Source: Acidobacteriota bacterium
GTDB taxonomy: Bacteria > Acidobacteriota > Thermoanaerobaculia > UBA2201
Length of the DNA stretch: 50,741 nt
NCBI GenBank assembly: GCA_037441225.1
Contig: JBBISU010000020.1
Coordinates: forward strand, 1-50,741
Direction: 5' to 3'
Below the pieces are notes generated by a model. The model worked only from the letters and a program-made list of their open reading frames with translations. It was not told the DNA's origin and made no database searches. A program made the translations under genes and the position numbers. Shown here piece by piece: positions 9,598 to 31,630 of this stretch; position 1 is the first letter of the stretch; each line of letters begins with the position of its first letter.

Positions 9598-9664
9598 AAT
9601 TGGGCAAAAAACCCATTAGATGGGTGAAATAACCCATAATCTTTAAAATTCTCTCAAAATAACT

Positions 9665-9681: not shown

Positions 9682-9717
9682 TATTTTTCTAAAACTTTAA
9701 AGAAAGGAGGTTTATAA

Positions 9718-12899: not shown

Positions 12900-14389
12900 A
12901 AAGACTAATATTTTTAATTTTTTTTCCTTCTTTTCTACTTTCCCAATGGGAAGTAAAATATACCTACCACAATCTTTCATCTTCAGGTTTAGGAAAAATT
13001 AAGTCAGAAAAGACAAAGGATATCTGTGGCTTTTGTCACACACCACACAATGCAGATCCAGAAGTACCTCTTTGGGGCTTTAAAATTTCCCCAGCAAATT
13101 ATAACTTATATTTTTCTCCTTCTCTGGATTCTGTATTAGAGCAACCAGGTGGTTCTTCCGTATTATGTCTTTCCTGCCATGATGGAACAATTGCTTTTTT
13201 GAGCAAAAATAATGAAAAAGAGATTTTACCAAAAAGCTTCAAGGGCTCTATGGATTTTGATTTAAGTGGCTCCCATCCAATTTCCTTTTTAATTGATGAT
13301 TCTTTTATAAGCCAAAACAATAAAAAGGATATGCTCTTAAAAAATTTAAAGGAAATTAAAATTTCCTTTGATGAAAAGGCAATAAAAGATGATAATAAAA
13401 TGGAGTGTACAACCTGTCATGATCCCCATAAAAACACCTTTCCTGAAGGGGAAGTGCCTTTTGGCAGAATGGAAAAATTTAATATCCTTTGCACATCCTG
13501 TCATATTTCACAAATTTTAAAACATGAAGACAAATTTTATCTGCCAAAGGAATGCATAACCTGTCATAAAGCACATGGAGAAAAGGGAACAATGCTTTTA
13601 AAAACAAAAGAACCTTCTCTTTGTTTTGAATGCCATGGGAATTCCGTTGATAGAGAAAAGGCATTAAAAGATGGTATGATCTCCTATAATTCTAACCCAA
13701 AAGAAGTTCTGTACTCTTTTTCACTTCCTTATAACCATCCTATATCTAATGGTTGCACAATTTGCCATAAATTGCATAAAGTTGAAAAAGAATATGAAAT
13801 TTGTGAAGAATGCCATAAAAATAATCCTATTTATTCTTCACCAGCATCACAGCATCCAGTATATCCCTCTGAAAATGTATTAAAATGTTCTAATTGTCAT
13901 AGAGGTAGTGACGAAAATTTAGGAAAAGGTGTCCATGGCTCCCTTTATAAAGGGCTTGTCTATAAAAATTATGAAACAGAAGATGGGAAAGGAGAAAGTA
14001 AAGAAACCTATGCTTTTTGCTATTCCTGCCATAAAAGAGAAGAGATATTAGAAAATAGTAAGTTTAGTTTGCATAAAAAACATATTGTTGATGAAAGAAC
14101 CTCTTGCTATACCTGTCATTCAAGCCATGGGTCTATTTTTTTGCCACATCTTTTAACCTTTGAAGATAAAATTAGGGAGGATAGGATAGGACCCACTAGT
14201 GATGGGATTTTAAGATATGAAAAATTTGGGGATGGAAGTGGTGCTTGCTATCTTACTTGCCATAATTTTGAACATAATGGTTTGGTTTATGGAGAAAATG
14301 CTCTTATCAAAAATTCAGAAATTCTAATAAGAACAAAATTTGGAATAAAAAAAACAAAATCCAAATTAAAAATATTAAAAGGGGAATAA
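12896..14389 (+). CDS. Multihaem c-type cytochrome, 11 CXXCH + 1 CX3CH
   Basis: Signal peptide. I counted 11 CXXCH plus CYLTCH (14246-14263). The N-terminal four-haem module is collinear with the 220-aa tetrahaem. Confidence 0.9.
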   Translation: MKRLIFLIFFPSFLLSQWEVKYTYHNLSSSGLGKIKSEKTKDICGFCHTPHNADPEVPLWGFKISPANYNLYFSPSLDSVLEQPGGSSVLCLSCHDGTIAFLSKNNEKEILPKSFKGSMDFDLSGSHPISFLIDDSFISQNNKKDMLLKNLKEIKISFDEKAIKDDNKMECTTCHDPHKNTFPEGEVPFGRMEKFNILCTSCHISQILKHEDKFYLPKECITCHKAHGEKGTMLLKTKEPSLCFECHGNSVDREKALKDGMISYNSNPKEVLYSFSLPYNHPISNGCTICHKLHKVEKEYEICEECHKNNPIYSSPASQHPVYPSENVLKCSNCHRGSDENLGKGVHGSLYKGLVYKNYETEDGKGESKETYAFCYSCHKREEILENSKFSLHKKHIVDERTSCYTCHSSHGSIFLPHLLTFEDKIREDRIGPTSDGILRYEKFGDGSGACYLTCHNFEHNGLVYGENALIKNSEILIRTKFGIKKTKSKLKILKGE

Positions 14390-14393: not shown

Positions 14394-14410
14394 TGGCATA
14401 AGAATTGCAT
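14394..14410 (+). promoter_or_regulatory. Sigma54 (-24/-12) promoter P3
   Basis: TGGCAT-AAGAA-TTGCAT, starting 5 nt after the upstream stop codon and ending 17 nt before ATG 14427. Confidence 0.75.
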
Positions 14411-14426: not shown

Positions 14427-17400
14427 ATGAGATATAAAGTTTTATTTTTGCTGCTTTTTTCTTTTGAAATTTTTGGAAACCAAAATCCAATTATAAATTC
14501 TTTTTCTGCTTCTTCTTATACTCTTTTGCCTGGTGCAACTGCTGATTTAAACTTAGAAGCTTATGACCCTGATTGTCCTTCCAGTTGCACAAGTGGTTGT
14601 GGTCAATATATAAGGGCAGATCTTACAAACTGGTCATCAAATGGAGGAAGTTTTTTAAATATAAATAATGGCACTTCTTCTTCACCTTATAATGCATCTG
14701 CACAATGGCAGGCGCCTTTGCAGGAAGGAACATATAATATTTCTATACAAATCTCTGACAGTGGCACTTTTCTTTGTGGTGGAAGGTTATCTGCTTCTTC
14801 AACAATCCAAATCACTGTAACCCAAAATTTAAACAACCCTCCTGTTATAAATTCATTTTCTATATCAGAAAATCCAATTCTTTTAAATTCTTCTGCAATT
14901 TTAAATGTTTCTGCTTATGATCCTGATGGAGATCCAATATCTTATGAATTTTCAACAAACCTTGGGGAAATTCACCCAATCTCAGAAGGAGTTGCAGAAT
15001 TTATTGCACCTTCCACACCTGGTATTGCAAATATAAGCTGCAAAGTTCAAGACGACAAAGGTGCTTTTACAGTAAAAGATTTAAAAGTTTACATAACAGG
15101 TGTGGTGCCAGAAAAATCTATTAAAATGGAAGGATTAACTAATTATAAAATTTCTTCTGATAATTATGGGTTTGTTTATGTCCCAACAAATAAAAATTTT
15201 ATTTATGTTTACAATTTAAATTATGGAAGTTTATTAAAAAAAATATTAGCTCCTTTTGTTGTTGCTGTTTCAATTGATTGGAATGGAAATATCTTTGCAT
15301 CTTTTGGAAATAATTTAAAATTATTAAGTCGAGAAGGGGATACCATTTTAACATTTAATTTACAAGGAAATTTTGAAGATATAACAGATGTCTTTTCTGA
15401 TAATTTAAACCATAAATATCTTTGCCTTTTATCATCTCAAGGAAAAATTGCAATCTTTGATGAAAATGGAAATCTTGAAAGAATTTTTGGTGGAATAGGT
15501 GATGGAGAAGGAAACTTTAAAAAAGCATCAGGTTTGGCTGTATATCAAAATGAAATTTATGCAGGAGATGTAGGGCATGGAAGGGTAAATGTCTTTGATT
15601 ACAATGGAAATTTTATAAGGTCCTTTGGGCAAAGGGGTGGAGAAGATGGAGAATTTGTGCAAATTAGCAGTTTAGATTTTGATTTGGATGGAAATTTATA
15701 TGTTATTGATACCTTTAAAAGCCAGGCTTCAGTTTTTGATTTTAATGGAAATTTAAAGGAAATTTTTGGGAAATATGGAAATGAAACTGGGAGCTTTATC
15801 CAGCCAATTTCTATTTCTTCTAATAAAAATTTTGGAAAAATTTTAGTTTTAAATTCAGGTAAAAATTCAGTTGAAATTTTTAATTTATATTCTAATTCAA
15901 ATCCTCCTGCAAATAATATACCTTCTGTGCCAGAGCCAATTTCCCCTTTAAATGGAACATCTTTTCCTAAAAATAGCAATGTAGAACTAATTTTAAGGAA
16001 AAGTTTTGACCCTGATTTTCAAGAACTTTATTATTCTTTTGAACTATATGAAGAAAAAAATAACAAAGATGAGCTCCTTGCAAGCTGGTTTATAAAAGGA
16101 GAATCCAATGAAATATCTGTTGATGCAACTCCTTTTTTATCAAAAGCAGGAAATTATAAATGGAGGGGAAGGGCTTTTGATTCAATTGATTGGTCAGAAT
16201 GGTTTGAATTTCAAAGTTTTACAATAAATACAGGCAATCCAAATAATCCACCATCTATGCCAAGTTTGCTTTATCCACAAGAAGGTTCAGAAGTAGATAC
16301 CTTGGAGCCAACCCTTACAATTTCAAATTCTAAAGATCCTGATAATGATCCTTTGTATTACATCTTTGAAATATACTTACACAATGGAACAGAAGGGCTT
16401 TTTATGGTTTATAAATCAGATCCAATTTCTCAAGGAAATGGATTGACTTCTTTTAAAGTTCCAGAAGGGTTACTTTCTTTAAGCCAACAAGTTTTTTGGA
16501 GGGCAGCTGCTTTTGATGGATACCTTTATAGCGAATATACACCTTACTTTACTTTCTTTACGCCACCCCTTCCCATACCTTCAAGTGAAGAAGTTGGCAA
16601 TCTTCCTGAAGGGGATTCTACAAGACCTTATATTTTAAATTTTGAGATAGGACCAAATGGTGAAGATACAAAGGTTTATTTCCAAATTTTTGGAAGTTTT
16701 AATGAAAATGAAATTTTCCTAATTGTAAATAATAATTATAAACATCCTTTAGGTCCTTACAATAATGAAAGCTGGTCTTTTACAGAATCTTTTTTAATTC
16801 CAAAGGAAGAGTTAAAAAATAATGAAAATAATAGGATCTCTTTTGAAAATCAAACAAACAAAAATTGGGGTTTAAGAAAAGTAACTTTAAGTCCACCTGA
16901 TAAAATAACTCTTAATGCAATATATTATAATACTGTGATTGATTTGCAAATCTCAGCAAAGTGCAAAAACTCAGAAAAGATAGAGATTTATAAAGCAATT
17001 GGAGAACCCAATTATTTTAATAAAGTAAATGAAATAAATTGTTTTGAAGGAATATTAAGAGACACAGGGCTTCAAAATGGAATAACTTATTTTTATTTTG
17101 CTATTAAAAAAGATAGCGAGGGCTTTGAATCAGAAAGATCAAATATTGTTTTTGGAATACCACAAGCAACAAGCACAACACCTGTAACTGATTTGAGAAT
17201 TATAAAAGAAGGTAATAATGTGAAAATTTTATGGACACCTATAACAAATGAGCCAGCAATCCAGTATTATGAAATTTATAAGGATGATTTTTCAAACTTT
17301 TTCCCTGATACCCAGAACTTTACAAATCTTTATACAACAAAAAGTCCTTATGAAGGGTCTTTTATTGATTATGATGAATTGTTAAACCCTGAAAATATTT

Positions 17401-17450
17401 GGTACATAATTTATCCCCTTTCTTTAAATGGTGAAAGAGGTATGCCATGA
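14427..17450 (+). CDS. Large secreted modular protein: two Ig/PKD-like modules, central NHL propeller, two ~100-aa FN3-like modules, C-terminal beta-rich region; no haem motif
   Basis: Signal peptide. Repeated INSFS...L..A.L.L.AYDPD modules, NHL units (GEGNFKKASGLAVYQNEIYAGDVGHGRVNVFDYNGN and others), and a repeated P..G......P.L......DPD...LYY.FE.Y module at about 15920-16570. Confidence 0.75.
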   Translation: MRYKVLFLLLFSFEIFGNQNPIINSFSASSYTLLPGATADLNLEAYDPDCPSSCTSGCGQYIRADLTNWSSNGGSFLNINNGTSSSPYNASAQWQAPLQEGTYNISIQISDSGTFLCGGRLSASSTIQITVTQNLNNPPVINSFSISENPILLNSSAILNVSAYDPDGDPISYEFSTNLGEIHPISEGVAEFIAPSTPGIANISCKVQDDKGAFTVKDLKVYITGVVPEKSIKMEGLTNYKISSDNYGFVYVPTNKNFIYVYNLNYGSLLKKILAPFVVAVSIDWNGNIFASFGNNLKLLSREGDTILTFNLQGNFEDITDVFSDNLNHKYLCLLSSQGKIAIFDENGNLERIFGGIGDGEGNFKKASGLAVYQNEIYAGDVGHGRVNVFDYNGNFIRSFGQRGGEDGEFVQISSLDFDLDGNLYVIDTFKSQASVFDFNGNLKEIFGKYGNETGSFIQPISISSNKNFGKILVLNSGKNSVEIFNLYSNSNPPANNIPSVPEPISPLNGTSFPKNSNVELILRKSFDPDFQELYYSFELYEEKNNKDELLASWFIKGESNEISVDATPFLSKAGNYKWRGRAFDSIDWSEWFEFQSFTINTGNPNNPPSMPSLLYPQEGSEVDTLEPTLTISNSKDPDNDPLYYIFEIYLHNGTEGLFMVYKSDPISQGNGLTSFKVPEGLLSLSQQVFWRAAAFDGYLYSEYTPYFTFFTPPLPIPSSEEVGNLPEGDSTRPYILNFEIGPNGEDTKVYFQIFGSFNENEIFLIVNNNYKHPLGPYNNESWSFTESFLIPKEELKNNENNRISFENQTNKNWGLRKVTLSPPDKITLNAIYYNTVIDLQISAKCKNSEKIEIYKAIGEPNYFNKVNEINCFEGILRDTGLQNGITYFYFAIKKDSEGFESERSNIVFGIPQATSTTPVTDLRIIKEGNNVKILWTPITNEPAIQYYEIYKDDFSNFFPDTQNFTNLYTTKSPYEGSFIDYDELLNPENIWYIIYPLSLNGERGMP

Positions 17451-18478
17451 GGTTTTTAATAATTATCCTTTTATTTCCATGTATAATTTTTTCTGTTGAT
17501 CCACCCCATTGGTCTTCTGCTTCCACTTATGAAGATTGTGATTCATCCTGTCATATTGTCCATTCTTCCCTTGGCTCTTCTTTAACTCAAGCAACTTCTA
17601 ATGTAAATTCCTGCCTTGCTTGCCACAATCCCACAGGACAGGCATCAAATCTTCCAATATCCTTAGAAGAAAGAGCAAATCCAAATTTTGGTGGAAGGCA
17701 TCATTCTTTTGATGTAAATGCAGTAAATCTAAGCTATGGGGCTGATTTGCCTCAAAATAATCAAATGCTTCCAAGGATTATGGAATCAAAAATTGTATGC
17801 TCTACCTGCCATAATCAACACACAGCTTCTTCTTCATTAGGTGGAACTGCAAGGATATCACAAGCAAGAAAAATTGCAGGAAGTGGGACTGGTACAATGA
17901 TATCTGGTGGAAATTATACAGGGACAAATGGAATATGGTATTTAATTGAAATTGATTCCCAAGGAAGTCAAGCAACAGCAACTTTTAAATGGTCAAAGGA
18001 CAATGGTTTGACATGGGTTCAACAAAATGTTAATTGTGGTAATGGAAATCCAGTGAATTTAGATAATGGAACACAAGTAACCTTTTCTGGTGGTGCAGGT
18101 GCTTTTCAATTAGGTGATAGGTGGGAATTTTATGCTTCTTATCCTTTTTTAAGAGTAAAATTAGATTCAGGAGATAACATAGCAGGTGATAGGTTTTGCA
18201 GAGATTGCCACAGGTCAATGGTTATGACCCATATGGATGTTGAAAATTATGATGGTACAAAGAAAAGCCATCCCATTGGAATTGTTTTAAATGCAAATGG
18301 AATGGGCTATGATAGGACTTCTCCCCTTGATGGAAATGGAAATCCTCAAGGTGGGCTTGGGGAAGATAATATAAAGTCCAATAACTTAAAATTAGATGGT
18401 AATGGGAATTTGCAGTGTTTAACTTGCCATAATGTCCATTATGCAGATTCAAATACAATAACAGAGGATCTGCCATGA
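17447..18478 (+). CDS. Secreted c-type cytochrome, 4 CXXCH + 1 CX3CH, with a central non-haem beta-rich insert
   Basis: Signal peptide. CLACH, CSTCH, CRDCH and CLTCH plus CDSSCH (17537-17554). Gly/Thr/Asn/Ser-rich. Confidence 0.85.
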   Translation: MRFLIIILLFPCIIFSVDPPHWSSASTYEDCDSSCHIVHSSLGSSLTQATSNVNSCLACHNPTGQASNLPISLEERANPNFGGRHHSFDVNAVNLSYGADLPQNNQMLPRIMESKIVCSTCHNQHTASSSLGGTARISQARKIAGSGTGTMISGGNYTGTNGIWYLIEIDSQGSQATATFKWSKDNGLTWVQQNVNCGNGNPVNLDNGTQVTFSGGAGAFQLGDRWEFYASYPFLRVKLDSGDNIAGDRFCRDCHRSMVMTHMDVENYDGTKKSHPIGIVLNANGMGYDRTSPLDGNGNPQGGLGEDNIKSNNLKLDGNGNLQCLTCHNVHYADSNTITEDLP

Positions 18479-21400
18479 AAAAGTTTTTATTTTTTCTATT
18501 AATTTTCCCTTTACATTCTTTTTCTGATACATTAAATTATACCTTTAATTTTGCTTCTTCTTCTGAAGGTTTTACTGCAACTACTGGCGGACAATCAACA
18601 GCTTCCTTTGATTCAGGAAATGGAAATCCAGCCGGCTCTATTTATACCCAGATTACAGGGAGAAGAAGGACAAATTCAAATTATTGGGAATGGACAGGGA
18701 CTTTTGAAGATTTGGGTGTCCCTTCTTCATCAATTATTACAGCCATCCAGCTTACAGGGGCATATAACAGATGCACAGTTTACTCAACAGGGCAACAATC
18801 CACAGCAGGTCCTTATGAGCTTAGAGATTCAACTGGGGCAACAGTCCTTGCAACTCTATGGGCAGGAAGGGATTTTTCAGCTGTAGATCCCTCTTGGGTT
18901 TTTGTATCTGGTTCAAACCAAATCCTTTCTGATATTCCATCAAATACTACAATTAAAATAAGATTGAACAATACTTTAAGGACTGGAAATTCAAATTCCG
19001 CACGGGTTACCCTTTATGATGACCAAATTTCTTTGACAATTACTTATCAATCAGCAGCAAATAATTATGTAACAATTGGTACAATTTCTGCAAATGTGAA
19101 TAGCTGTACTCAAATAACTGCCCAAGCAACCTTCACAGATGATGCAAATGGTAATAGCACTACAACCTTTGAATATAATACTTCAAACAACTGGCCTGGA
19201 ACAGTTGCTTGTTTAAATTTAACAGGTTCTTCTCCAAGAGAATGTATAATACAAAATTTACAAAATGACACAGATTACTGGATAAGGGTAACTTTTAATG
19301 ATATTGATGGGGTTGTTGGAACAAACCCACAGGTTATAGGACCTTACAGAACATACAATTGCCAAACAGTTGTATCCAGTGCAACAGCAAATGTTAATTC
19401 TTGCAGTCAAATTACAATTTCTGCTCCTTTTTCAGGTGATTGGAACCAAAATAGTTCAACAAACTTTGAAATCCAGCAAAATTGTACTGGAAGTTTTTCT
19501 TCCCTTTGCTCAAATGTTTCAGGTTCAAGTCCAAGGGTTTGTGTTGCAAACTCTTTGATAGAAAATACAAATTATTGCTTTAGAATAACTTTTCAAGATA
19601 CTGATGGAGTTGTTGGTACAAACCCACAAACAATTGGTCCTTATACAACCCCTCCTTGTACACAAACAGGTACAACAATAATTCAAAATAATGTATATAT
19701 AGAAAATTGCAGACAACTTAAAGCCCTTGGATTTTTTTCAGGAGATGGTGATTTAGATGGCTCACTGCTGGTTGAATATAATAACATAAATAACTGGCCA
19801 GGAAACATTGCTTGTAATCAAATAACAGGGATTTCACCAAGGCAATGCTTGATCTCAAACCTTACAGCTGATACTGACTGGTGGGTAAGGTTTACTTATA
19901 CAGACCCTGATGGAGTTTTAGGGACAAATCCAGAAGTTTTGGGTCCTTTCCACACACCCCTTTGTGGGGCAGATCAAGCAAGCCCAACAATTACAGTTCT
20001 TTCTCCAAAAAAGGGAGCTATAATTGGTGGGACAGAAAGGTTAAAAATACAGGCTTATGATGCAGGTGGAATTTCTTCTGTTTCTGTTTCAATAAATGGA
20101 GGATCTTATCAAAGTGCTACCTTAAATGGAAATTATAATTGTGGTACAAATTGTGGAATTTATGAATATGATTTTGATACAACCCTTTTATCAAATGGAG
20201 AAACAACAATAACAATTAAAGCACAAGATACCTCTTCAAATTTAAGTTTTACAAGCATCAGTGTTAATATAAAAAATTCAGGTGGAAAACCCCAAGGCTC
20301 TGGTCTTCTTTTAAGAAGAAGCCATGGGAGCCAAATTTGTATTGATTGCCATAACCTTCCTTCCCATTCCAGCCAACACACTGGCACAAAATATGGTTCT
20401 TGGTCTATTGACTGCTTAACCTGTCATACACCTCATTATACAACAAATATTTACCTTATAAATGAATATATAAGGACACCAAATAGTGGTTTGAAAAATG
20501 TAATTTTCAGAGTAGATGATAAAACAGGTGGAACAAATCCACAATTAAGCTATATTGGTGCTTATGATATAAATGGCATACCTTATGATGATGGTATATG
20601 TGAGGTCTGCCATACAAAAACAAACCATTATAGAAACGATGCATCAGGTGGTGACCATACTCACAATCAAAATTCAAGGTGTGTAAATTGCCATCAACAC
20701 TCAAAGGGGTTTGCAGCAGCAGGTTGTAATGGATGCCATAAAGCACCACCCAGTGTTGGGAAGCATTTAAAGCATGATGAAGTTGGACAAGTTCCTTCAT
20801 CTTATACTGAAACTTCTTCCCATGCAACTCAAACCCAATATGGTTTTTCTTGTGCAAAGTGCCATTCTGGGGCCCATACAAATGATACCCATTCTGGAAC
20901 TATAACAGATCCTTATCAAGTGGAAGTAATTTTTGATTCAACCCAAGACCCAAAAAATCCTTTAGGTACTTATAGCCAAAAATACCCAGATGCTTTAGAT
21001 CAAGGAACTGATACAACAAAATACTGGTCTTGGACCCAATCAATTGCAGGAACTGATGGAAATTGTTCAAACCTTTACTGCCATTCAAATGCAAACCCTG
21101 TGGGTGGAAATGTCTCTTATACAACTGTTAAATGGAATGAAACAAATGCAACAAATTGCCAGTCCTGCCACAATACTATTGCAAGGGATGATAGTGGAAA
21201 TTTGACTGATTTGTCATTAAAACATGGAAAGCATATCTCTTATAATGGCGAAGCTTCAACATATAATTATACCTGTGATGAATGCCATAGCTTAACAATT
21301 GTTGACAATTCAAAAGCTCCTTGGCTTTTAGATTCAAATGATTTAAAGGATAAAAGATACCATGTCAATGGCTTAAAAGATGTCTCCTTTTCTCCAACTG

Positions 21401-24372
21401 CTTTTTCATCAAACATAATTGATCAATCAAGTGGTTCTTATTCAAGTGGTATATGTTCAAATACATACTGCCATTCTAAAGGGACTTCAACTTCTTCTCC
21501 TTTTTCTCCTCCAAATGTAAATCTGGTCTGGAATACAGGAACTTCAAGTTGTGATTCCTGCCATGGAGGAAATGCAACTTCTACAAATATTATAAATACA
21601 AATGCTCACAGTGCCCATATAAACCAAGCAAGTTATTTAGGTTCAAATTTTATGTGTTATATGTGCCATCAAAACACTGTATCTTCTGTTTCTGATAATA
21701 CAATTAATAATTATAGCTTTCATGTAAATGGTTTAAAGGATGTTGTAATTTATAATGGTGGAAACTATAACAGTTATCAATGCACAAACACTTATTGCCA
21801 TTCAAATGGGACAGAGGTAAATGATTATGTAAATCCACCACTATGGAATTCTGGTACAACCCTTCCAAATGATTGCAAACAATGTCATGGAACAGAAGGA
21901 GGATCCATTGCAGGTGAACCAAGGTATGCAAACAATACTGGGTCTTATGATACAAGAAATAGCCACCAAATTTCAGACCATATTTCCTCTTCTTTAAGTT
22001 GCTATAAATGTCATTCAAGCACAGTAAATTCTTCTGGAAATTTAATTTCAGGTGGGTTGCATTTAAATGGCACAAGGGATGTTTCAAATTCAACTTTTAT
22101 TACATCTTATAATGAAACAAATGAAACCTGCCAAAACATTTGCCATTCAAATAACTCAGTTGTATGGGGGGATACAGTTTCTTGCAGGGATTGTCATTTA
22201 AAAACAGGTGCAGGCAATCAAGATGTAAATGATTATACATGGGATAATTTAATGGAAGATGGAACTGGAATAGTTGCAATTATTGATGGAGAGGACTGGG
22301 CAAATTATGGCCATGGAAATTCCACTGGTTTCCCCTTGGAATCTGCAAACTCTGCTCCAAATTTTGATTCTGGGGGAAGGGATGGATGTTTATATTGCCA
22401 TACAAAATCAGTTTCCCATAACAATTCAAATAATCCTTTCAGGTTAGCAAACATTGGAGCAGGAAACACAGCTGCATCAAAAAATGGTGTTTGTACAATT
22501 TGCCATGGTGGAAGTGGCTACAATCCTGGAACTGGCCTTGTTGATTCTTCAAAAGATATAGATTATTACCATTATGGTTTAGACCATGGAACAACAGGAG
22601 GAAAGGGTTTAGGTGGACAGCTTTGCTGGGATTGTCATGATCCCCATGGGGATTATAACTATTCTGCAAATCAAAGACTTGGTTTTATGTTCCAATATGA
22701 ACCAGTTGAAAATCATAATGATGCAGGAGGAAATACAACTGAATGGGGCATTCCAACCCAAATTGCTTCAACACCTGATTTTAGAAGGTTAAGGGATGGA
22801 ATAGATGCTTGGGGATGGGGGGATTATGTAATTAACAACAGTGGTGGGGTCTGTCAGGTCTGCCATGATGCAACAAACCACTTTTTAAAAACAACAAATT
22901 GGGCATCTGATTCAACCCATTTTCCAGGAAACAGATGCACTGAATCTTGTCATAAACACAAAACTGTAACCTTTGCTCAAAATGAAGCTTTCAAACCAGC
23001 AGGTGGAACCTGCAAAGGTTGCCATTCCACAAGGACTGGCAGCATACCAAGAGCACAAATTGTAGGAGGTACAGCTGGTTCTGAAGGTGATGATTTTATA
23101 AGGCCCTCAAGACATGTATCAGATGGGACAACCTCAGAAATTGTAACAGATTTCGATTGTATCGTTTGCCATATGGAAGGGGATCCTTCTTCTACAACAG
23201 GAAATATCCTGACAAATCCAACTTACCATGGTGCTGATGGTGGCTCCACAACAGTTGATTTAAGGAATGTGGACAGCAGAAACTCTGTTGCTTCTGCCTG
23301 GCCTGGAAAGAGATTATCAACTTGGTCTGCTACAACAACTGACAGGGATAATATGGACAATTTCTGTTTAAACTGCCATGATTCTGATAATTCTTCTTCT
23401 ACTTCAAACTGTGGTGGTTCTTGGGATATTGCAGTAAATTCAACAAATTCTGGGCTTTTAACAGGAGGTCCTGTTTCAAGAAGGTTTACACCTTTTAATA
23501 CCCAAGATACACAACAAAATGCCCATGAAATAGATACAGACATAAGGAATGCAAGGGCAAATTCTGGGGTGGTAGATGTAAGGGGACAATTTAATTATCA
23601 AAATTTAACAGGTAAAAACTGGGCAAGCCATCATAATTTAAGACAGTTTACAAAAAGGTATTCTACAAGAAATACAACTTACTGGCCTAATGCTGCCTGG
23701 ACAACTTACACAACAAAGGAAGGGCAAAATATTCAAACAGCAGGTGAGATAGCAGGTCTTCATTGTTCAGATTGCCATTTAAATGAAGCAAATGCCCATG
23801 GTACAAGAAATACACCTTACATCCTTTCAGATATGAATGGAAATGACACAACCTATCAAAATCCTGGTTATACCAATGGAACAGATATTTGTTTTAAATG
23901 CCATAACAGAGCTGTTTATGGAGGAGGAAATTCAGATACTGGAAATTCCAGGACAAGGGCACATAATCAAAGTGGGGCAAGGTGTAATAATTGGTGGAGT
24001 TCTCAAAATAAAGGGGTTGCAACAATGGGTTCCACTTCTCAAATTACAAATAATTCAGGTACAACAAATCTTCCCTGCCTTGGCTGCCATGGTGGAATGA
24101 GTTTTGGAATGATCCATGGGACAAATTCAACTTACAATCCAGGTAAATCCACAACATGGACATCAAAAAGATACAGGTTTATGGGTTCTGGTGGTTCTAT
24201 GAGATGGTATTCTCCAAATAATTCAACAACAGGAAATGATACTTCTTGGGAAGGAACTTCAAATATTGGCTGTTATACTATAAATGCAGTTGATGCCTAT
24301 GGTGGTTGCACTCAACATGGTGGTGGTTTCCAGAATGTAGCAGCAAACAGGGCAAGACCCCTTGAATATTGA
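18475..24372 (+). CDS. Giant (1965 aa) secreted multihaem cytochrome: ~600-aa non-haem N-terminal region (unknown domain, three FN3-like repeats, Ig-like domain) followed by 23 CXXCH + 3 CX4CH + 2 CX3CH
   Basis: Signal peptide MKKFLFFLLIFPLHSFS. Motifs counted by eye. Three copies of the HxNGxxDV...CxNxYCH...W...CxxCH unit known from Geobacter CxxxxCH...CXXCH repeat cytochromes. Confidence 0.9.
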   Translation: MKKFLFFLLIFPLHSFSDTLNYTFNFASSSEGFTATTGGQSTASFDSGNGNPAGSIYTQITGRRRTNSNYWEWTGTFEDLGVPSSSIITAIQLTGAYNRCTVYSTGQQSTAGPYELRDSTGATVLATLWAGRDFSAVDPSWVFVSGSNQILSDIPSNTTIKIRLNNTLRTGNSNSARVTLYDDQISLTITYQSAANNYVTIGTISANVNSCTQITAQATFTDDANGNSTTTFEYNTSNNWPGTVACLNLTGSSPRECIIQNLQNDTDYWIRVTFNDIDGVVGTNPQVIGPYRTYNCQTVVSSATANVNSCSQITISAPFSGDWNQNSSTNFEIQQNCTGSFSSLCSNVSGSSPRVCVANSLIENTNYCFRITFQDTDGVVGTNPQTIGPYTTPPCTQTGTTIIQNNVYIENCRQLKALGFFSGDGDLDGSLLVEYNNINNWPGNIACNQITGISPRQCLISNLTADTDWWVRFTYTDPDGVLGTNPEVLGPFHTPLCGADQASPTITVLSPKKGAIIGGTERLKIQAYDAGGISSVSVSINGGSYQSATLNGNYNCGTNCGIYEYDFDTTLLSNGETTITIKAQDTSSNLSFTSISVNIKNSGGKPQGSGLLLRRSHGSQICIDCHNLPSHSSQHTGTKYGSWSIDCLTCHTPHYTTNIYLINEYIRTPNSGLKNVIFRVDDKTGGTNPQLSYIGAYDINGIPYDDGICEVCHTKTNHYRNDASGGDHTHNQNSRCVNCHQHSKGFAAAGCNGCHKAPPSVGKHLKHDEVGQVPSSYTETSSHATQTQYGFSCAKCHSGAHTNDTHSGTITDPYQVEVIFDSTQDPKNPLGTYSQKYPDALDQGTDTTKYWSWTQSIAGTDGNCSNLYCHSNANPVGGNVSYTTVKWNETNATNCQSCHNTIARDDSGNLTDLSLKHGKHISYNGEASTYNYTCDECHSLTIVDNSKAPWLLDSNDLKDKRYHVNGLKDVSFSPTAFSSNIIDQSSGSYSSGICSNTYCHSKGTSTSSPFSPPNVNLVWNTGTSSCDSCHGGNATSTNIINTNAHSAHINQASYLGSNFMCYMCHQNTVSSVSDNTINNYSFHVNGLKDVVIYNGGNYNSYQCTNTYCHSNGTEVNDYVNPPLWNSGTTLPNDCKQCHGTEGGSIAGEPRYANNTGSYDTRNSHQISDHISSSLSCYKCHSSTVNSSGNLISGGLHLNGTRDVSNSTFITSYNETNETCQNICHSNNSVVWGDTVSCRDCHLKTGAGNQDVNDYTWDNLMEDGTGIVAIIDGEDWANYGHGNSTGFPLESANSAPNFDSGGRDGCLYCHTKSVSHNNSNNPFRLANIGAGNTAASKNGVCTICHGGSGYNPGTGLVDSSKDIDYYHYGLDHGTTGGKGLGGQLCWDCHDPHGDYNYSANQRLGFMFQYEPVENHNDAGGNTTEWGIPTQIASTPDFRRLRDGIDAWGWGDYVINNSGGVCQVCHDATNHFLKTTNWASDSTHFPGNRCTESCHKHKTVTFAQNEAFKPAGGTCKGCHSTRTGSIPRAQIVGGTAGSEGDDFIRPSRHVSDGTTSEIVTDFDCIVCHMEGDPSSTTGNILTNPTYHGADGGSTTVDLRNVDSRNSVASAWPGKRLSTWSATTTDRDNMDNFCLNCHDSDNSSSTSNCGGSWDIAVNSTNSGLLTGGPVSRRFTPFNTQDTQQNAHEIDTDIRNARANSGVVDVRGQFNYQNLTGKNWASHHNLRQFTKRYSTRNTTYWPNAAWTTYTTKEGQNIQTAGEIAGLHCSDCHLNEANAHGTRNTPYILSDMNGNDTTYQNPGYTNGTDICFKCHNRAVYGGGNSDTGNSRTRAHNQSGARCNNWWSSQNKGVATMGSTSQITNNSGTTNLPCLGCHGGMSFGMIHGTNSTYNPGKSTTWTSKRYRFMGSGGSMRWYSPNNSTTGNDTSWEGTSNIGCYTINAVDAYGGCTQHGGGFQNVAANRARPLEY
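19070..19960 (+). repeat. Three tandem ~95-aa coding repeats (FN3/Ig-like) inside the giant cytochrome gene
   Basis: The units ANVNSC.QIT....F..D.N.NS.T.FE......W.G...C.N.TGSSPR.C....L...T.Y..R.TF.D.DGVVGTNPQ.IGPY.T recur three times at the protein level. Confidence 0.65.
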
Positions 24373-25505
24373 TGTTATTCTTAATTCTCTTTTCTTTAAT
24401 AGAAGTTGAAGGTTATTTATCTTTAAATGCAATCCAGGGCTTTATAATTGAAAAGGACTCAAAATTTTACCCATTCATAACAAAGCCCTATACTTTATAT
24501 TTAAATTTTAAAAGCCCCAATGAATTAGAAATTGGGGATAAATTAAAAGTATATTTTAAAGAAGAAAAAGGTGTCCCCATTGCTTTTAAAATTGAAAAAT
24601 TAAAAAAGATTTACATAAATCCAAAATTTGAAATAAAAGAAAGTTTTTTTAAAGAAAATTTAGAAAATTATGAATTGGTTGATTTAAGGGAAGAAGAAGA
24701 ATTTCTCAAAATCAACATTCCTTCTTCAAAAAGAGAGTTTATAAAGAACAATAAAGAAATTATTTTTTATTGCAATGATTATTATGATGAAAAATGTATA
24801 GAAAAATTTCAAAATATTTTAATTAAAGAAAAAGGAAATTTTTTATTTTTTCAAGGTGGGATAAAAGAATGGAATAAAAGGGGAAATTACTTTTATACAG
24901 AGCCAGAAATTTTTTTAAAAAAAGAAAAGATTAATTTTTATCTGGTAGATTTGAGAAATAAGGAAGAAAGGGAAAAGGGGGTTGTGCCTTTTTCTTTTTA
25001 TGCAAATCTGGAAGAAATGGACTGGAGGGATTTTTCATCAGAAGAAGGAATGGTTCCTCTTTTGTTTATAGGAAGAGATGAAAATGATGAAAGACCTGTA
25101 AAAGCAGCAAAAAAGGTTTTAAAGTGGCGATATGATAATAATAAAAATGGATATGTTTCTATTTTAAAGGGCGGGATTGAAGGACTTAAAAAAATTGGCT
25201 TTAATTTAGAAAAAAAAGAAATTTTGTCCTTTAAAGTTTCAAATTTAAAAAAGGAAGGGGAAATTAAATTAGAAGAATTAAAAAAAGAAAATTATTTTGT
25301 TGATTTAAGAGATGAAGGGGATGCAAATTTCAAATCTGCAAAAAATTTAAAACTTTCTGAGTTGGATGAAAAAATTGAAATGCTTCCAAAAGATAAAGAA
25401 ATAATCTTATTTTGTTATGAAGGAAAAAGGGCAGAAGTAGCTTTTCATATTTTAAAAAAATTGGGTTTTGATGTAAAATTTATAAATGAACCACCATTTT
25501 TTTAA
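24369..25505 (+). CDS. Exported protein with three rhodanese-homology domains (only the last has a catalytic-type Cys loop)
   Basis: Hydrophobic N-terminus. Three units of the type Y.LVDLR...E...G.IP..... The third carries the loop CYEGKRA (Cys at 25413-25415). ATG 24372 overlaps the TGA of the giant cytochrome gene. Confidence 0.75.
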   Translation: MMLFLILFSLIEVEGYLSLNAIQGFIIEKDSKFYPFITKPYTLYLNFKSPNELEIGDKLKVYFKEEKGVPIAFKIEKLKKIYINPKFEIKESFFKENLENYELVDLREEEEFLKINIPSSKREFIKNNKEIIFYCNDYYDEKCIEKFQNILIKEKGNFLFFQGGIKEWNKRGNYFYTEPEIFLKKEKINFYLVDLRNKEEREKGVVPFSFYANLEEMDWRDFSSEEGMVPLLFIGRDENDERPVKAAKKVLKWRYDNNKNGYVSILKGGIEGLKKIGFNLEKKEILSFKVSNLKKEGEIKLEELKKENYFVDLRDEGDANFKSAKNLKLSELDEKIEMLPKDKEIILFCYEGKRAEVAFHILKKLGFDVKFINEPPFF

Positions 25506-25980
25506 AATCTTTTTCATAATTTTAATATTTTTTATAATTTCTCTTTTCTTATTTGATAAGGACTGGCTTTTGCAGTTAAATTTTTTGAAAGAGAAAGAAA
25601 AAAAAGAAATAGAAAAAACAATTGAAATTTATAATAAAATTTTAATGGACTTTTATGCTACAAGTGGGAATCCATCTTTAATAGATGAAGTTCCAGCAGC
25701 AAAAATTTTAAAACATGAAATCTTTAAAGAAATTGGATTTTTATCTATGAATGAAAGGGTTCTTGTATGGGATCTGGCAAGTATTAAAATTGAAAAAATA
25801 AGTTTTTATGGATTTAAAAAAGCAAAGGCAAGGGTTTTAGAAGAATGGAACTATCAATTTCAGGATTTATATACAAGAAAGCCCAGTTCAGAAGTAAGGG
25901 GAAAAACAGTTAAAATAGAATATGATTTAAGAAAAGTAAAAAATAAATGGATAATTTTTGAATGGTTTCCATTAAGTTAG
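25486..25980 (+). CDS. Membrane-anchored protein of unknown function (paralogue of 26768-27277)
   Basis: One N-terminal TM helix and a ~130-aa soluble domain. Collinear with the 169-aa protein (I..YN..L...Y...G......PA...LK.E........EEW). Confidence 0.55.
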   Translation: MNHHFFKIFFIILIFFIISLFLFDKDWLLQLNFLKEKEKKEIEKTIEIYNKILMDFYATSGNPSLIDEVPAAKILKHEIFKEIGFLSMNERVLVWDLASIKIEKISFYGFKKAKARVLEEWNYQFQDLYTRKPSSEVRGKTVKIEYDLRKVKNKWIIFEWFPLS

Positions 25981-26771
25981 CACTTTTTTTTATAATTTTT
26001 TTATTTTCAATTTTTAATTATTTTATAAATAAAAATTTTTGGTCTTTAACTTACATTAAAACTTTTTTAATTTTTTATTTTTTATTTATTTTTATATTTT
26101 TACTTTCATCAATCTTAAAGTATTTGAAAAGAGAAAGAATAGCAGGACTTTTTAACCTTTCCATCTTTTTCTTTTCTTCTTTTATTTTTCTTTCTCTATC
26201 CTATTATAACAAAATTGAATTAAGCATTGGAGAAGGTGAAGGTTCTTATAACTTAGAAAAAAATGAAGGGGGGTTTCTTTCGAAAGGAAAAAATTATGAT
26301 TTAAATTTAAAAGAAATTAATGAAAAATCAATAAAGATTTTTTTTGAAAAAAAAGAATTTAATTTAAAAGAAAAGGAAGGAATTTATTTTAAAGATAAAT
26401 ATATTAAATTGAAAGGAATTTTTAAAAGTATTGAGATAAATGTATTTCAAGAAGGGGGATATAGCGAAGGAGTTTTTTTTAAATTAAAAGATGAAGAAAA
26501 CTCTTACTTTCCTTTATCAACCTTGCCATATAGAATTTATATTAAAAATATAAAAGATTTTTATAAGATAAAAATATATAGGAATAAAACTCAAGTTTTA
26601 GAAAAAGAAATTAAATTAGGTGAAATTTTTCCTTTTGATTTTTTAAACCTTAAATTAAATGAAGGTCCCCTTTGGGCTTTGTTAGAGGTAAAAAATTATT
26701 TTTCTTTTTTTTATTTTTTAATACCTTTGATATTTTTTATCCTTTCTTTTTATGATAAACTAAAAAAATGA
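25962..26771 (+). CDS. Polytopic membrane protein, possibly a shortened and degenerate Ccs1/ResB-like protein
   Basis: N-terminal TM helices, a soluble loop starting with SIGEGEG (compare VGEGEE in the 386-aa ResB-like protein) and a C-terminal TM helix. It lacks the TM His seen in both ResB-like proteins (HFSF). Confidence 0.35.
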   Translation: MVSIKLALFFIIFLFSIFNYFINKNFWSLTYIKTFLIFYFLFIFIFLLSSILKYLKRERIAGLFNLSIFFFSSFIFLSLSYYNKIELSIGEGEGSYNLEKNEGGFLSKGKNYDLNLKEINEKSIKIFFEKKEFNLKEKEGIYFKDKYIKLKGIFKSIEINVFQEGGYSEGVFFKLKDEENSYFPLSTLPYRIYIKNIKDFYKIKIYRNKTQVLEKEIKLGEIFPFDFLNLKLNEGPLWALLEVKNYFSFFYFLIPLIFFILSFYDKLKK

Positions 26772-27277
26772 AAGATTTAATTTTAATAATTTTAATTTCA
26801 ACAATTTTATTTTTTACCCTTGCAATAATTGAGGACTGGCAAAACTTTAAATTCCTTTTTTTTAAGCAAGAAATAAAAAAATTGGAATTTTCAGATGAAA
26901 TTTTAAAAACAATAGATAAATACAATACATTATTAGAGCATATATACAGATTTGAAGGTGATGAAAGGTTCCTCCAGCGCCTTCCTGCAAGTGATTTTTT
27001 AAAAGAAGAAACCTTAGAAGATTTATACTATTTAAATTCTTACCAAATAATACAGGAAATTAAATTAAAAAAGATAGAGATTTTAAAGAAAAATTTATTA
27101 AATGAAAACCAGGCAATTGTATCAACCTTAGAAGAATGGGAAATTTTTTATAAAGATAAAACTGGCCATCCCCTTCAAAAAAAGCCAATGATTTTTTCTT
27201 TAAACAATGATTATTATTTAAGGAAAGGGATTTCAGGATGGCTTATAGAAAAAATTGAAATTCCTGATGAAATTTAA
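26768..27277 (+). CDS. Membrane-anchored protein of unknown function (paralogue of 25486-25980)
   Basis: Same architecture and collinear conserved positions as the 164-aa protein. It overlaps both neighbouring genes. Confidence 0.55.
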   Translation: MKDLILIILISTILFFTLAIIEDWQNFKFLFFKQEIKKLEFSDEILKTIDKYNTLLEHIYRFEGDERFLQRLPASDFLKEETLEDLYYLNSYQIIQEIKLKKIEILKKNLLNENQAIVSTLEEWEIFYKDKTGHPLQKKPMIFSLNNDYYLRKGISGWLIEKIEIPDEI

Positions 27278-28508
27278 AAAAATATTTTTTTCTTTAAAAT
27301 TTTCTGCTATCTTAATTTTTCTTTTGGTTTTTTTTCTTTTTTTAAATGTCTTTTTGCCTCAAGAAAGAGTCCTTGGAAAAGAAAAAATCAAAGAAATTGT
27401 AGGAGAAAATAGCTTCTTAAAATTCTTTTTTTACAAACTAAATTTTAAAGATATAACCTCATCGCCATTATTTTTTCTTATTTTATTACTCTTTTATCTA
27501 CAGCTAATTTTTTTTATTTTCAGATATTTTAAGTTAACATTAAAAAGGATAAAAATTAAAGAACCAAATTTTAAAAATTGGAAATCTTTAAAAATAAAAG
27601 GAGAGATAGAAGAAATAAAGAATTTTTTAAAAGAAAAGAGCTGGAAAGAATTTCAAATAAAAGAAAATAAATTATATTATGTTATAAATGAACTTTCCCC
27701 TTTAGGGTTTTTATTTTTTCATTTTTCTTTCCTCTTATATTTGTTGAGTGGATTTTTGTTATATTATACAAGATCTGAAAAGGAATTCTTTTTAGCTTTG
27801 AATCAGACAGTTTCACTGGAAGATGAAAGCTGGGTTTTGCAAAAGAGAAAACCAAAGATAAAAGAAAGTTTAAAAAACCTTAAAGTTTATTTAAAAAATG
27901 TAAATTTAAATCTATATAAGGAAGAACCTCTTTTATTTAAAACAGAAATAGTTTTATGGCATAATAACAAAATGATTAATGGAAATGCTGAAATAAATAA
28001 ACCTTTTAAGTATAAAACTTTAAAAGTTTATCCAGTTTTTCAAGATGATGCTTTTTTAATTCAAGTGGAAGATAAAGAGGGCTATATAATTGAAAAACCA
28101 ATTATTTTTTCTAATTGTTCAAAAAAAATTGGCAGTGCCTATAGAATTTTGGATAAAATAGAAGGAGAAATTGGATGTGAAAAAGTGCCTTATTTAAATT
28201 TATCTTACAATGGAAAAAAAGAAAAACTCCAGATGATAGAAGGAAGGGAAATAAATTTTGGTGACATAAGAGTAAAAATAATAAAAAAAGTTCCTTGGGT
28301 AAAATTTAGGGCAATAAATGAGTCAGGTTCCTTTCCATTATTTCTTGGTTTTATTTTAAGTATTTTAGGTCTCATCTTTAGATTTCTTTTCCCAAATAGA
28401 GAAATTGTTATATCAAATTCTTTAATTTACTATAAAGCAGATTATTTCCCTTCTTCTTTGAAAGAATTAATTGAAAAATTTTGTGAGGTGAAAAATGGAG
28501 CTGGTTGA
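27255..28508 (+). CDS. resB: Cytochrome c biogenesis System II protein Ccs1/ResB (copy 1)
   Basis: ResB-like N-terminus (FSLKFSAILIFLLVFFLFLNVFLPQ), a TM helix with His (FFHFSFLLYLLSG), a large soluble loop and a C-terminal TM helix. It directly precedes ccsA. Confidence 0.7.
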   Translation: MKFLMKFKKIFFSLKFSAILIFLLVFFLFLNVFLPQERVLGKEKIKEIVGENSFLKFFFYKLNFKDITSSPLFFLILLLFYLQLIFFIFRYFKLTLKRIKIKEPNFKNWKSLKIKGEIEEIKNFLKEKSWKEFQIKENKLYYVINELSPLGFLFFHFSFLLYLLSGFLLYYTRSEKEFFLALNQTVSLEDESWVLQKRKPKIKESLKNLKVYLKNVNLNLYKEEPLLFKTEIVLWHNNKMINGNAEINKPFKYKTLKVYPVFQDDAFLIQVEDKEGYIIEKPIIFSNCSKKIGSAYRILDKIEGEIGCEKVPYLNLSYNGKKEKLQMIEGREINFGDIRVKIIKKVPWVKFRAINESGSFPLFLGFILSILGLIFRFLFPNREIVISNSLIYYKADYFPSSLKELIEKFCEVKNGAG

Positions 28509-29277
28509 AGTTTTATCTTTTTATATTTCCCTTTTTCTTTATTTATTTTCAAATATTTATGGTTATTTTAATTATTTTTTTAAAAAAGATTTTAATTTTA
28601 AGAGAATTTATAAAATTACTCTTTTAGCATTCTTTTTTCATTTCTTTACAATAATTTTTAGAACAATCCTTACAAAACATATACCAGTAATAGGAAACTA
28701 TGAAAATATTTTAATGGGTTCTTTCTTTCTTGTAATATTGATTTTCTTTTTCTTTAGGAAAGAAAAATGGTTTTTGCCTTTTCTTTTTAGCTTATCTTTA
28801 AATATTATATTATTAGGTATGGCAATCTTTGCAGATCCTGAAAAAAAACCCTTATTTGCTGCTTTAAAATCCTTCTGGCTTTATATCCATATCCTCTTTG
28901 CCTGGTTTGCTTATGGTTCATTTACAGTAGCAGCAGGGGTAAGTATTACTTATCTTATAAAAAAGGAAGAGTCCTTAGAAGAGTTAATTTTTAAATTAAC
29001 TGCATTTGGGCTTGTGACAGATGCTTTAATGATAATTGCTGGTTCAATTTGGGCAAAGGATTTATGGGGTTCTTATTGGTCCTGGGATCCTGTTGAAACC
29101 TGGTCATTGCTTTCCTTTTTATTATATGGCTTAATATTACACCTTAAAATTACTTTGAAAATAAAAAGAAAAACCTTTGCTTATTTGATTATCTTTTCCC
29201 TCATAACAGTTTTAATTTCTTTTTGGGGTGTAAACTTTTTTATGGAAAAAAGTTTGCATATTTTTAATGTAGGTTAA
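28495..29277 (+). CDS. ccsA: Cytochrome c assembly protein CcsA/ResC (canonical WWD haem-handling motif)
   Basis: Trp-rich motif WAKDLWGSYWSWDPVETWS at 29050-29103, with flanking conserved His residues. Confidence 0.9.
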   Translation: MELVEVLSFYISLFLYLFSNIYGYFNYFFKKDFNFKRIYKITLLAFFFHFFTIIFRTILTKHIPVIGNYENILMGSFFLVILIFFFFRKEKWFLPFLFSLSLNIILLGMAIFADPEKKPLFAALKSFWLYIHILFAWFAYGSFTVAAGVSITYLIKKEESLEELIFKLTAFGLVTDALMIIAGSIWAKDLWGSYWSWDPVETWSLLSFLLYGLILHLKITLKIKRKTFAYLIIFSLITVLISFWGVNFFMEKSLHIFNVG

Positions 29278-29278
29278 A

Positions 29279-31228: not shown

Positions 31229-31249
31229 TAGAGTGTTATAATTAAGGGT

Positions 31250-31630
31250 ATGAAGAATTTTTTAAAAATGCTTTTAGTTTTAAATAATTATTCCCATGAT
31301 TTTGCAGCTGCTTTTTTTCTTTCAAGTGCTCTTATCTTATTTTTATTAAAAAAGGAACTGGCAAATCCAGATATCCCAAAAGAATTAAAAACTAAAATTT
31401 TTAACATTTTATCAAAAATTGGTTTAATTTCTTTTTTCTGGATAATTTTAGCAGGTATTATTAGAACTTATTTTTTTAGAAGCTTTGAATTAAACGAAAG
31501 CATAAAAAAAGGAGAAGTTAATATTTTGATTTTCAAGCACATAATTTTCTTTTTAATTACAATTTTAGGGATTTTTTTATGGAAAAGATTAAGAAAAGAA
31601 ATATATAAAAGCAACTTAAAAGCAAATTAA
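31250..31630 (+). CDS. Small integral membrane protein, unknown function
   Basis: Three or four hydrophobic helices. His residues lie in the first (NNYSHDFAAAFF) and last (FKHIIFFLITIL) helices. No family recognised. Confidence 0.5.
   Translation: MKNFLKMLLVLNNYSHDFAAAFFLSSALILFLLKKELANPDIPKELKTKIFNILSKIGLISFFWIILAGIIRTYFFRSFELNESIKKGEVNILIFKHIIFFLITILGIFLWKRLRKEIYKSNLKAN

Follow-up and report, generated by a model that had tools for sequence, protein, structure and literature searches.

The locus described here raises the question of where a single, very large bacterial cytochrome acts and what its parts contribute. Giant multihaem cytochromes are thought to make solids that cannot be taken up available for bacterial respiration. 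To our knowledge almost none of them has been characterised. The gene in question lies on contig JBBISU010000020.1 of the Acidobacteriota assembly GCA_037441225.1, of which positions 1 to 50,741 (50,741 nucleotides) were analysed and are referred to as the window. Its product carries 28 haem motifs on one chain, and it sits in a cytochrome cluster extending from 6942 to 31630. With a probability of roughly 0.6 the protein is an extracellular, adhesin-tipped single-chain haem wire, forming the distal element of an extracellular electron-transfer system. Coordinates of the features are given in Table 1.

Haem motifs, export signal and composition

An earlier reading of this DNA, made without database searches (the sequence-only reading), had proposed the open reading frame (ORF) at 18475-24372, its length of 1965 amino acids (aa) and its haem motif counts, all of which were reproduced. 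There are 23 CXXCH, two CX3CH and three CX4CH motifs. The CX3CH motifs are at aa 1219 and 1488 and the CX4CH motifs at aa 864, 994 and 1103. Shuffled versions of the protein gave 0.1 CXXCH. The 23/2/3 counts are identical in the close homologues P0002-P0005, so the unusual CX3CH and CX4CH motifs are conserved sites and not accidents. The haem region contains 69 His, which is sufficient for bis-His ligation of all 28 haems. The first haem motif is at residue 622, in agreement with the earlier description of about 620 N-terminal residues without one.

The protein begins with a Sec-type signal peptide. This peptide, MKKFLFFLLIFPLHSFSDT, contains zero Cys. AlphaFold2 (AF2) gave a predicted local distance difference test score (pLDDT) below 50 for aa 1-14, the signal peptide region. 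No transmembrane-like segments were seen beyond it. The giant protein is supported as a Sec-secreted, non-lipoprotein multihaem cytochrome.

Thr, Ser, Asn and Gly each make up 10-11% of the protein (42% together) and Lys 2.6%, as expected from the Asn/Ser/Thr/Gly-rich, Lys-poor character reported before. N-x-S/T sequons numbered 46, compared with 42.6 ± 5.2 expected from the amino-acid composition. Their richness had been offered as a hint of glycosylation. As the count matches the compositional expectation, sequon abundance is no evidence for glycosylation, and this candidate was rejected.

Structure of the N-terminal head

The head (aa 1-620) was modelled in AF2 using a 20-row alignment of homologous segments. 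Mean pLDDT was 86.9. Five beta-sandwich domains were resolved: a jelly-roll at aa 18-192, termed D1, three FN3-like domains at aa ~199-493 and a Big_7 domain at aa 505-599. The layout read from the sequence, a beta-rich domain followed by three FN3/Ig repeats and an Ig-like domain, was thus given specific folds. The three ~100-aa repeats (aa 196-497) align with common Cys, SPR and DGV-GTNP motifs and were modelled as FN3-like beta-sandwiches. Their Pfam fn3 match was weak and under the cut-off. Big_7 was matched by Pfam at aa 504-581 with 37.7 bits (cut-off 24.1).

In Foldseek searches of the PDB the head resembled the ectodomains of the receptors RPTPmu (MAM-Ig-FN3) and Eph, and FN3 arrays, with E values to FN3 arrays reaching 1e-14. 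Among viral models it matched actinophage minor tail proteins and FN3 proteins. These matches of the predicted structure are best taken as architecture-level. TM-scores were low because the angles between domains are free. The possibility had been raised that the N-terminal modules belong to a characterised cytochrome family. When compared with such families they matched only uncharacterised relatives.

Haem-binding region

The haem region is composed of a first block, a central series of repeated units and a C-terminal module. Residues 620-1240 scored above the curated Pfam/NCBIfam cut-offs for the cytochrome c7, MtrC domain II-IV and CxxxxCH-CxxCH families. PF09698 was matched in three stretches (64 bits, cut-off 21.7) and TIGR01904 in four (80.8 bits, cut-off 27). 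The H-x-NG-x-x-DV repeat had been assigned to the CxxxxCH/CXXCH type, and these scores bear the assignment out. Each three-haem unit has the form CXXCH...H-x-NG-x-x-DV...CX4CH...W...CXXCH. Four copies are present, with CX3CH replacing CX4CH in the fourth. The CX4CH/CXXCH pairs are ~30 aa apart (aa 864/895, 994/1026 and 1103/1134), and the CX3CH variant is at 1219/1237. Density in the central region is ~39 aa per haem.

Within the C-terminal ~470 aa the motifs NAHG, IHGT, YRF and C-x11-C-T-x-H are invariant, as is the terminal R-P-[LI]-x-Y. The stretch from C-x11-C-T-x-H to R-P-[LI]-x-Y-COOH occupies 24271-24369 (aa 1933-1965) and is invariant family-wide. Neither of these two motifs corresponded to a known haem motif or sorting signal. 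By sequence, the whole giant protein had no PDB match at E<=1 and none to the solved cytochrome filaments OmcS, OmcE and OmcZ, which are polymers of small 4-8-haem subunits whose haems are ligated or stacked across the subunit contacts.

Distribution and modularity of the family

Homologues were sampled by a protein search, which gave 50 relatives, and by a scan of one genome per GTDB species, which gave 76 loci. The full arrangement, starting at the FN3/Ig head and ending with the C-terminal module, was found in Thermoanaerobaculia, Holophagales, Polarisedimenticola, Sulfomarinibacteraceae, Anaeromyxobacter and other Myxococcota. One carrier of a full-length homologue, Anaeromyxobacter oryzisoli (L004), is culturable. 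Full-length relatives in Acidobacteriota and Myxococcota had up to 3305 aa and 46 haem motifs. The size and domain arrangement had been considered unusual for bacteria. This did not hold, since the same head-plus-haem architecture is present in dozens of proteins, some of them larger than the window protein (3035-3305 aa). Relatives in Nitrospirota, Geobacter and Desulfuromonadales had the haem core only (roughly aa 610-1640, ~30% identity).

The most widely shared block was aa 262-757, comprising FN3 repeats, Big_7 and the first five haems. This block heads many proteins of 1200-2000 aa with 10-14 haems. The number of CX4CH motifs per relative ranged from 0 to 8, the window protein having three plus the fourth unit with CX3CH. 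In the short members P0018, P0022, P0024, P0037 and L080, with zero CX4CH, the head is joined straight to the tail. Both ends are kept while the middle varies, so the family is organised as a head, a variable CX4CH wire and a conserved tail. Two apparent stand-alone C-terminal modules were parts of longer genes. P0210 is preceded by cytochrome ORFs of 1968 and 505 aa on the same strand, and P0226 has no signal peptide and is preceded by an Ig-plus-haem ORF.

Integrity and origin of the gene

The sequence-only reading had allowed for an assembly chimera. An artefact of this kind, in which an adhesin was joined to a cytochrome or the assembly collapsed, or a strain artefact, could account for a gap in the window protein. 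The six closest relatives (74-86% identity) all have 2210-2222 aa, and all six carry 255 aa of Ig-like and FN3 sequence absent between aa 191 and 192 of the window protein (19048-19051). The difference is, however, in frame and exactly at domain boundaries, from which a real deletion appears likely. The linker G-x-G-x-LLRR-x-HGSQ-x-C-x-x-CH, which leads from the Ig-like domain to the first haem, is kept in >35 homologues from independent assemblies. A Thermoanaerobaculia metagenome-assembled genome (MAG) encoding a 76% identical protein (L001) shows gene-for-gene synteny. GC content at third codon positions (GC3) is 0.21 in the giant gene and 0.16-0.22 across the genes of the window. Given this evidence an artefact is hardly credible. 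The window protein is the product of a real gene, belonging to a family that is well populated in databases and experimentally uncharacterised.

Foreign origin was considered due to the higher overall GC content of the giant gene, and rejected. Its GC3 is like that of its neighbours. The excess is at second codon positions, where GC reflects amino-acid composition.

The host was placed using MutS (42538-45051, plus strand). About 12 relatives were found at 68-84% identity, one of them labelled Thermoanaerobaculia, and none further above 50%. This gap points to a host in a poorly sampled lineage with 28% GC, which looks deep. In one relative the giant gene and mutS appear on a single 94.7-kb contig, with 80% and 74% identity, respectively. 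These values are consistent with vertical inheritance under constraint.

Relatives of the jelly-roll domain

An exhaustive HMMER search of 1.84 billion representative proteins gave at least 387 relatives of D1, the majority not cytochromes. In the best 149 the haem motif count never reached three, and 130 of these 149 have no hydrophobic N-terminus. D1 usually begins at residue 3 (MAT[VL]...). P0046 (1364 aa), found in the first homologue search, is 43% identical to D1 over its first 190 residues. On three metagenomic contigs (L077-L079) its gene (6583-10677) lies amid those for terminase, portal, protease/capsid and tape-measure proteins, a gene content consistent with a tailed phage. A pattern scan found the domain in only one IMG/VR viral contig (L082). 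The phage link is drawn from L077-L079, L082 and the 130 of 149 relatives without a signal peptide.

With two D1 versions as queries, tblastn had zero matches among 50,697 GenBank phage records. PHROGs had nothing for D1 or for most D1-bearing proteins, and Pfam gave no meaningful match for 29 D1 members. The D1 profile matched only allophycocyanin in the PDB, over a 20-residue stretch (E 0.04), and this was dismissed as a chance match. D1 is an undescribed domain family found mostly in signal-peptide-less proteins, of which at least one is phage-encoded. Among cytochromes of the giant's kind, a small subset has D1 at the tip.

Gene neighbourhood and promoters

The sequence-only reading had described the giant gene as part of an electron-transfer system, and the surrounding cluster, with its porin-like gene and DmsE/MtrA-like cytochrome, agrees with this. 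Beside homologues in Acidobacteriota and Myxococcota loci, the 5-haem partner, NHL/Ig protein, rhodanese, two small proteins and ResB/CcsA (System II cytochrome c biogenesis) recur. In L002, L003 (MAG AM4), L005 and L015 the giant gene, 5-haem partner, NHL/Ig protein and ResB/CcsA are in the same order. ResB/CcsA also recur in Nitrospirota loci, with a small membrane protein in one case. The 5-haem partner has a beta-rich insert with the Asp-box-like motif SKDNGLTW between haem sites.

Table 1. Features of the giant cytochrome gene and its cluster in the window.
Feature	Position	Strand	Description
Giant multihaem cytochrome gene	18475-24372	+	1965 aa, 28 haem motifs; stop codon overlaps start of next gene
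Sec-type signal peptide MKKFLFFLLIFPLHSFS, followed by DT	18475-18525	+	Sequence reading; no lipobox Cys, no twin arginine
D1 jelly-roll beta-sandwich head domain	18526-19050	+	~175 aa; AF2 model; no Pfam or PDB sequence relative
Three tandem FN3-like domains	19060-19965	+	aa 196-296, 297-395 and 396-497; conserved Cys in each
Big_7 bacterial Ig-like domain and disordered linker	19984-20271	+	Linker aa 600-620 with G-x-G-x-LLRR-x-HGSQ junction
First haem block	20332-20889	+	6 CXXCH; cytochrome c7 / MtrC-MtrF domain II-IV-like matches
Four three-haem CxxxxCH...CXXCH units (variable-length wire)	20842-22203	+	TIGR01904/PF09698; fourth unit CX3CH
Conserved C-terminal module	22939-24369	+	~6-7 haems, ~78 aa per haem; also in short family members without the wire
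21-haem cytochrome	6942-8579	+	Ordinary Lys/Glu-rich composition; N-terminal hydrophobic segment
Porin-cytochrome-type module	8590-14389	+	NHL lipoprotein, 4-haem cytochrome, beta-barrel-like protein, NHL protein, 12-haem cytochrome
4-haem cytochrome of the module	9718-10380	+	Lys/Glu-poor
Beta-barrel-like protein of the module	10343-12049	+	568 aa, ends GNGF; sequence character only
12-haem DmsE/MtrA-like cytochrome of the module	starts at 12896	+	
Secreted NHL beta-propeller / Ig-like protein	14427-17450	+	1007 aa; Lys/Glu-poor; co-conserved with the giant gene
5-haem cytochrome	17447-18478	+	Lys/Glu-poor; most consistent upstream partner across phyla
Exported rhodanese-domain protein	24369-25505	+	Loop C-Y-E-G-K-R resembles an active site; neighbour downstream of the giant gene, conserved
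Three small membrane proteins, two ResB/CcsA pairs, 126-aa membrane protein	25486-31630	+	Block kept downstream of homologues
Two ResB/CcsA pairs of this block	27255-31228	+	
126-aa membrane protein of this block	31250-31630	+	
Sigma-54-type promoter TGGCATAAGAATTGCA	14394-14409	+	Upstream of the operon with the giant gene
Sister sigma-54-type sites	6584-6599, 9665-9680	+	
Sigma-54 activator response regulator	5219-6556	-	Flanks the cluster
HAMP histidine kinase	31627-33009	-	Flanks the cluster

Four cluster proteins, those starting at 9718, 14427 and 17447 and the giant protein, have 2-12% Lys+Glu and 33-42% Asn+Ser+Thr+Gly. Lys+Glu is 11-32% in all remaining ORFs of the window, among them the 21-haem and 12-haem cytochromes. 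As GC3 is uniform, the Lys/Glu-poor composition is a protein-level signature and not one of foreign DNA. Proteins that are exported and cheap to build typically show this kind of composition. The split possibly reflects an outside/inside division of the cluster proteins, marking the extracellular members.

The sigma-54-type sites are near-perfect, have the form TGGCAT-N5-TTGCA and are located in the intergenic gaps before 6612, 9718 and 14427, each ahead of an operon of the cluster. Chance alone would give ~0.03 of these sites per window, as roughly estimated from base composition. The motif also precedes the NHL/Ig gene in L001 (2663) and in L002 (4755), a Holophagales locus with 69% GC.

Elsewhere in the window an N6/N4 DNA methyltransferase gene (985-2427, minus strand) adjoins a 250-aa ORF without a family match. 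The two are possibly a restriction-modification pair.

Proposed role and alternatives

A cell-surface or extracellular role is the best reading of the composition, head modules and synteny. The sequence-only reading had named the protein as the terminal, cell-surface element. The terminal role is retained here, and the surface location is what we infer from these three features. The Sec-exported, non-lipidated polypeptide would act outside the outer membrane. The host would be a diderm bacterium, judging from the porin-like gene. The C-terminal module, with its R-P-L-x-Y end, would be cell-proximal and would accept the electrons of the 5-haem cytochrome (17447) and of the porin-cytochrome module (8590-14389). 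These would be conducted lengthwise by the dense central region with its four CX4CH-type units. With 0 to 8 CX4CH units in relatives, evolution would set the length of this wire. The five N-terminal beta-sandwich domains would form a non-redox stalk and an adhesive tip, fixing the wire on a solid surface. The downstream ResB/CcsA pairs probably mature the CX4CH/CX3CH sites. Transcription of the operon would be from the sigma-54 promoter, probably under the control of the flanking two-component system. Electron flow toward Fe(III)/Mn(IV) or other solids is favoured.

Several observations weigh against this interpretation. A lipid anchor, a transmembrane helix at the C-terminus and a known sorting signal were sought in the giant protein and all were absent, and no secretion system or anchor was identified for it. 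The AF2 model of the C-terminal module (aa 1489-1965, 18-sequence alignment) had a pLDDT of 30 and was unusable, and the docking role and polarity of this module are therefore guesses. The assignment of 10343-12049 as a beta-barrel is likewise putative, being made from the character of the sequence. The composition signature is equally what cost selection would produce in any exported protein. Sulfur chemistry is another possible reading of the conserved rhodanese neighbour.

The direction of electron flow may be the reverse, with an inward conduit fed by Fe(II) minerals, reduced sulfur, a cathode-like surface or a partner cell. In principle haem chains can work both ways. The giant cytochrome clusters PCC3 and Uet were described in iron and cathode oxidisers (PMC5566968, PMC10734462), and the first half of the window cluster matches the Uet parts list. 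An inward conduit is nonetheless unlikely. Judging from Flieder et al. (10.1101/2020.10.01.322446) and the homologues sampled here, carriers of full-length homologues with known physiology are mostly metal reducers or their kin (Anaeromyxobacter, Thermoanaerobaculum-type loci), and components specific to inward flow, such as Cyc2 or an MtoD-like cytochrome, are missing from the window. It is also quite improbable that the protein remains in the periplasm, whether as a wire spanning it or as an electron store (capacitor). No targeting feature other than the Sec signal is recognisable, neither a lipobox nor a known surface-sorting motif, and a periplasm-spanning role has been proposed for cytochromes of 21-27 haems (PMC10734462). 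Five adhesin-type domains, including one otherwise found in phage proteins, would have no obvious role there, though, and composition separates the giant protein from the ordinary 21-haem and 12-haem cytochromes of the cluster. By rough inference a chain of 28 haems and five domains would also be far longer than the periplasm.

A catalytic C-terminal module, acting for example on sulfur compounds together with the exported rhodanese while the remaining protein feeds or drains the site, is very doubtful. The module has a lower haem density, many invariant non-haem residues and the invariant C-x11-C-T-x-H, and several phyla have kept, as a neighbour, a rhodanese with an active-site-like Cys loop. 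Against this, the giant protein had no enzyme-family match in Pfam, NCBIfam or the PDB, and the rhodanese is of ordinary composition and sits in the ResB/CcsA block, where it may serve maturation.

Beyond the single protein, the adhesin-tipped wire can tentatively be extended to a class of adhesin-tipped, length-adjustable wires, although this wider proposal is more likely wrong than right. The phage-linked jelly-roll would have been recruited as a targeting head, holding the wire to one particular surface, which may be a mineral face, exopolysaccharide or a partner cell. CX4CH number would set reach, and docking or export would depend on the R-P-L-x-Y module as a new determinant. The ResB/CcsA, rhodanese and small membrane proteins recur downstream of CX4CH homologues in several phyla, which suggests a dedicated CX4CH/CX3CH maturation system. 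A literature search gave no report of a haem lyase specific to CX4CH, nor any of the head architecture of the giant cytochrome.

Significance

The design of this family is unusually legible, with a confidently modelled head, a variable wire built of repeats, a conserved tail and fixed partner and maturation genes. The partner and maturation set is common to Acidobacteriota and Myxococcota and partly to Nitrospirota. The family is useful for asking how export and anchoring of a very long cytochrome are achieved, whether substrate specificity comes from adhesion domains, and whether CX4CH sites need a specific haem lyase. New here are D1 as a phage-linked head, the modular build of head, wire and tail, the invariant C-terminus, and the conservation of the maturation genes and of the sigma-54 context. 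For a low-GC lineage that is poorly sampled, the window offers a clean and well-supported annotation of an electron-transfer cluster's terminal element.

Comparison with known systems

Very large cytochromes have been reported before. In extracellular cytochromes He et al. (2017, PMC5566968) counted up to 63 haems, the median being 34, and Arbour et al. (PMC7399161) described 33-49-haem proteins in several phyla. The S-layer-fused cytochromes of ANME-2/ANME-3 archaea (10.1101/2024.05.23.595608) resemble the window protein in their size (1200-3200 aa) and in combining haem arrays with non-redox surface modules. They carry S-layer domains and transmembrane helices, whereas the window protein has neither, and no S-layer families were matched in Pfam or NCBIfam. 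MtrC/OmcA of Shewanella are likewise proposed terminal surface reductases, and the Pfam MtrC/MtrF domain II-IV matches aa 620-805. They are, however, 10-haem lipoproteins with two pentahaem domains and split beta-barrels, while the window protein has 28 haems, no lipobox and another head. Ga0056053_03448 of Geoalkalibacter ferrihydriticus (PMC12016550; 1208 aa, 24 haems) is similar by description, with two N-terminal FN3 'adhesion' domains. It is smaller, and a jelly-roll and Big_7 were not reported for it.

At the level of the cluster, PCC3 of iron oxidisers (He et al. 2017, PMC5566968) combines a porin gene and a 21-haem cytochrome with a very large extracellular cytochrome that is Thr/Ser/Ala/Gly-rich and has internal repeats. 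A porin, a ~21-haem cytochrome and a very large cytochrome are all present in the window cluster, compared by kind and not by homology. PCC3 is defined by an inner-membrane protein of ~300 aa with five transmembrane helices and two W-x3-H-x13-H motifs. Neither H-x13-H nor W-x3-H was found among the candidate membrane ORFs of the window examined, and membership of PCC3 was rejected. The Uet undecahaem complex of the cathode-oxidising Ca. Tenderia (summarised in PMC10734462) has the same parts as 8590-14389, namely an extracellular 4-haem cytochrome, a porin, NHL-repeat proteins and an 11-12-haem cytochrome. It has no giant CX4CH cytochrome, and the likeness is one of parts lists alone.

The closest likeness in the wire is to the CxxxxCH/CxxCH cytochromes (TIGR01904/PF09698), first catalogued in Geobacter sulfurreducens. 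GSU2884-type proteins and the 27-haem protein of G. metallireducens, one of the 27-haem Geobacter 'wires' modelled by Soares et al. (10.1101/2024.01.05.574438), share with the window protein the repeated CX4CH...CXXCH, the many haems and a predicted extracellular elongated wire. Unlike the window protein, the relatives in Geobacter, Desulfuromonadales and Nitrospirota have no jelly-roll/FN3/Ig head and no R-P-L-x-Y C-terminal module.

Syntenic, extracellular cytochrome-rich loci were reported in Acidobacteriota MAGs and in the Fe/Mn reducer Thermoanaerobaculum aquaticum by Flieder et al. (10.1101/2020.10.01.322446), who proposed them as metal-reduction machinery. Their MAG AM4 (Ca. Polarisedimenticola svalbardensis) is the source of L003, in which a homologue covering aa 197-1951, the 5-haem partner and ResB/CcsA pairs are present. 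As far as the available text of that study goes, proposed metal reduction via porin-cytochrome clusters is common to those loci and the window cluster; the loci are treated there as wholes, and the head, C-terminal module, phage-type domain and dedicated biogenesis genes are not dissected. The window lineage has a far lower GC content (28%) than the lineages described there. Rather than a new kind of system, the window locus is a good example of a widespread family in metal-cycling bacteria.

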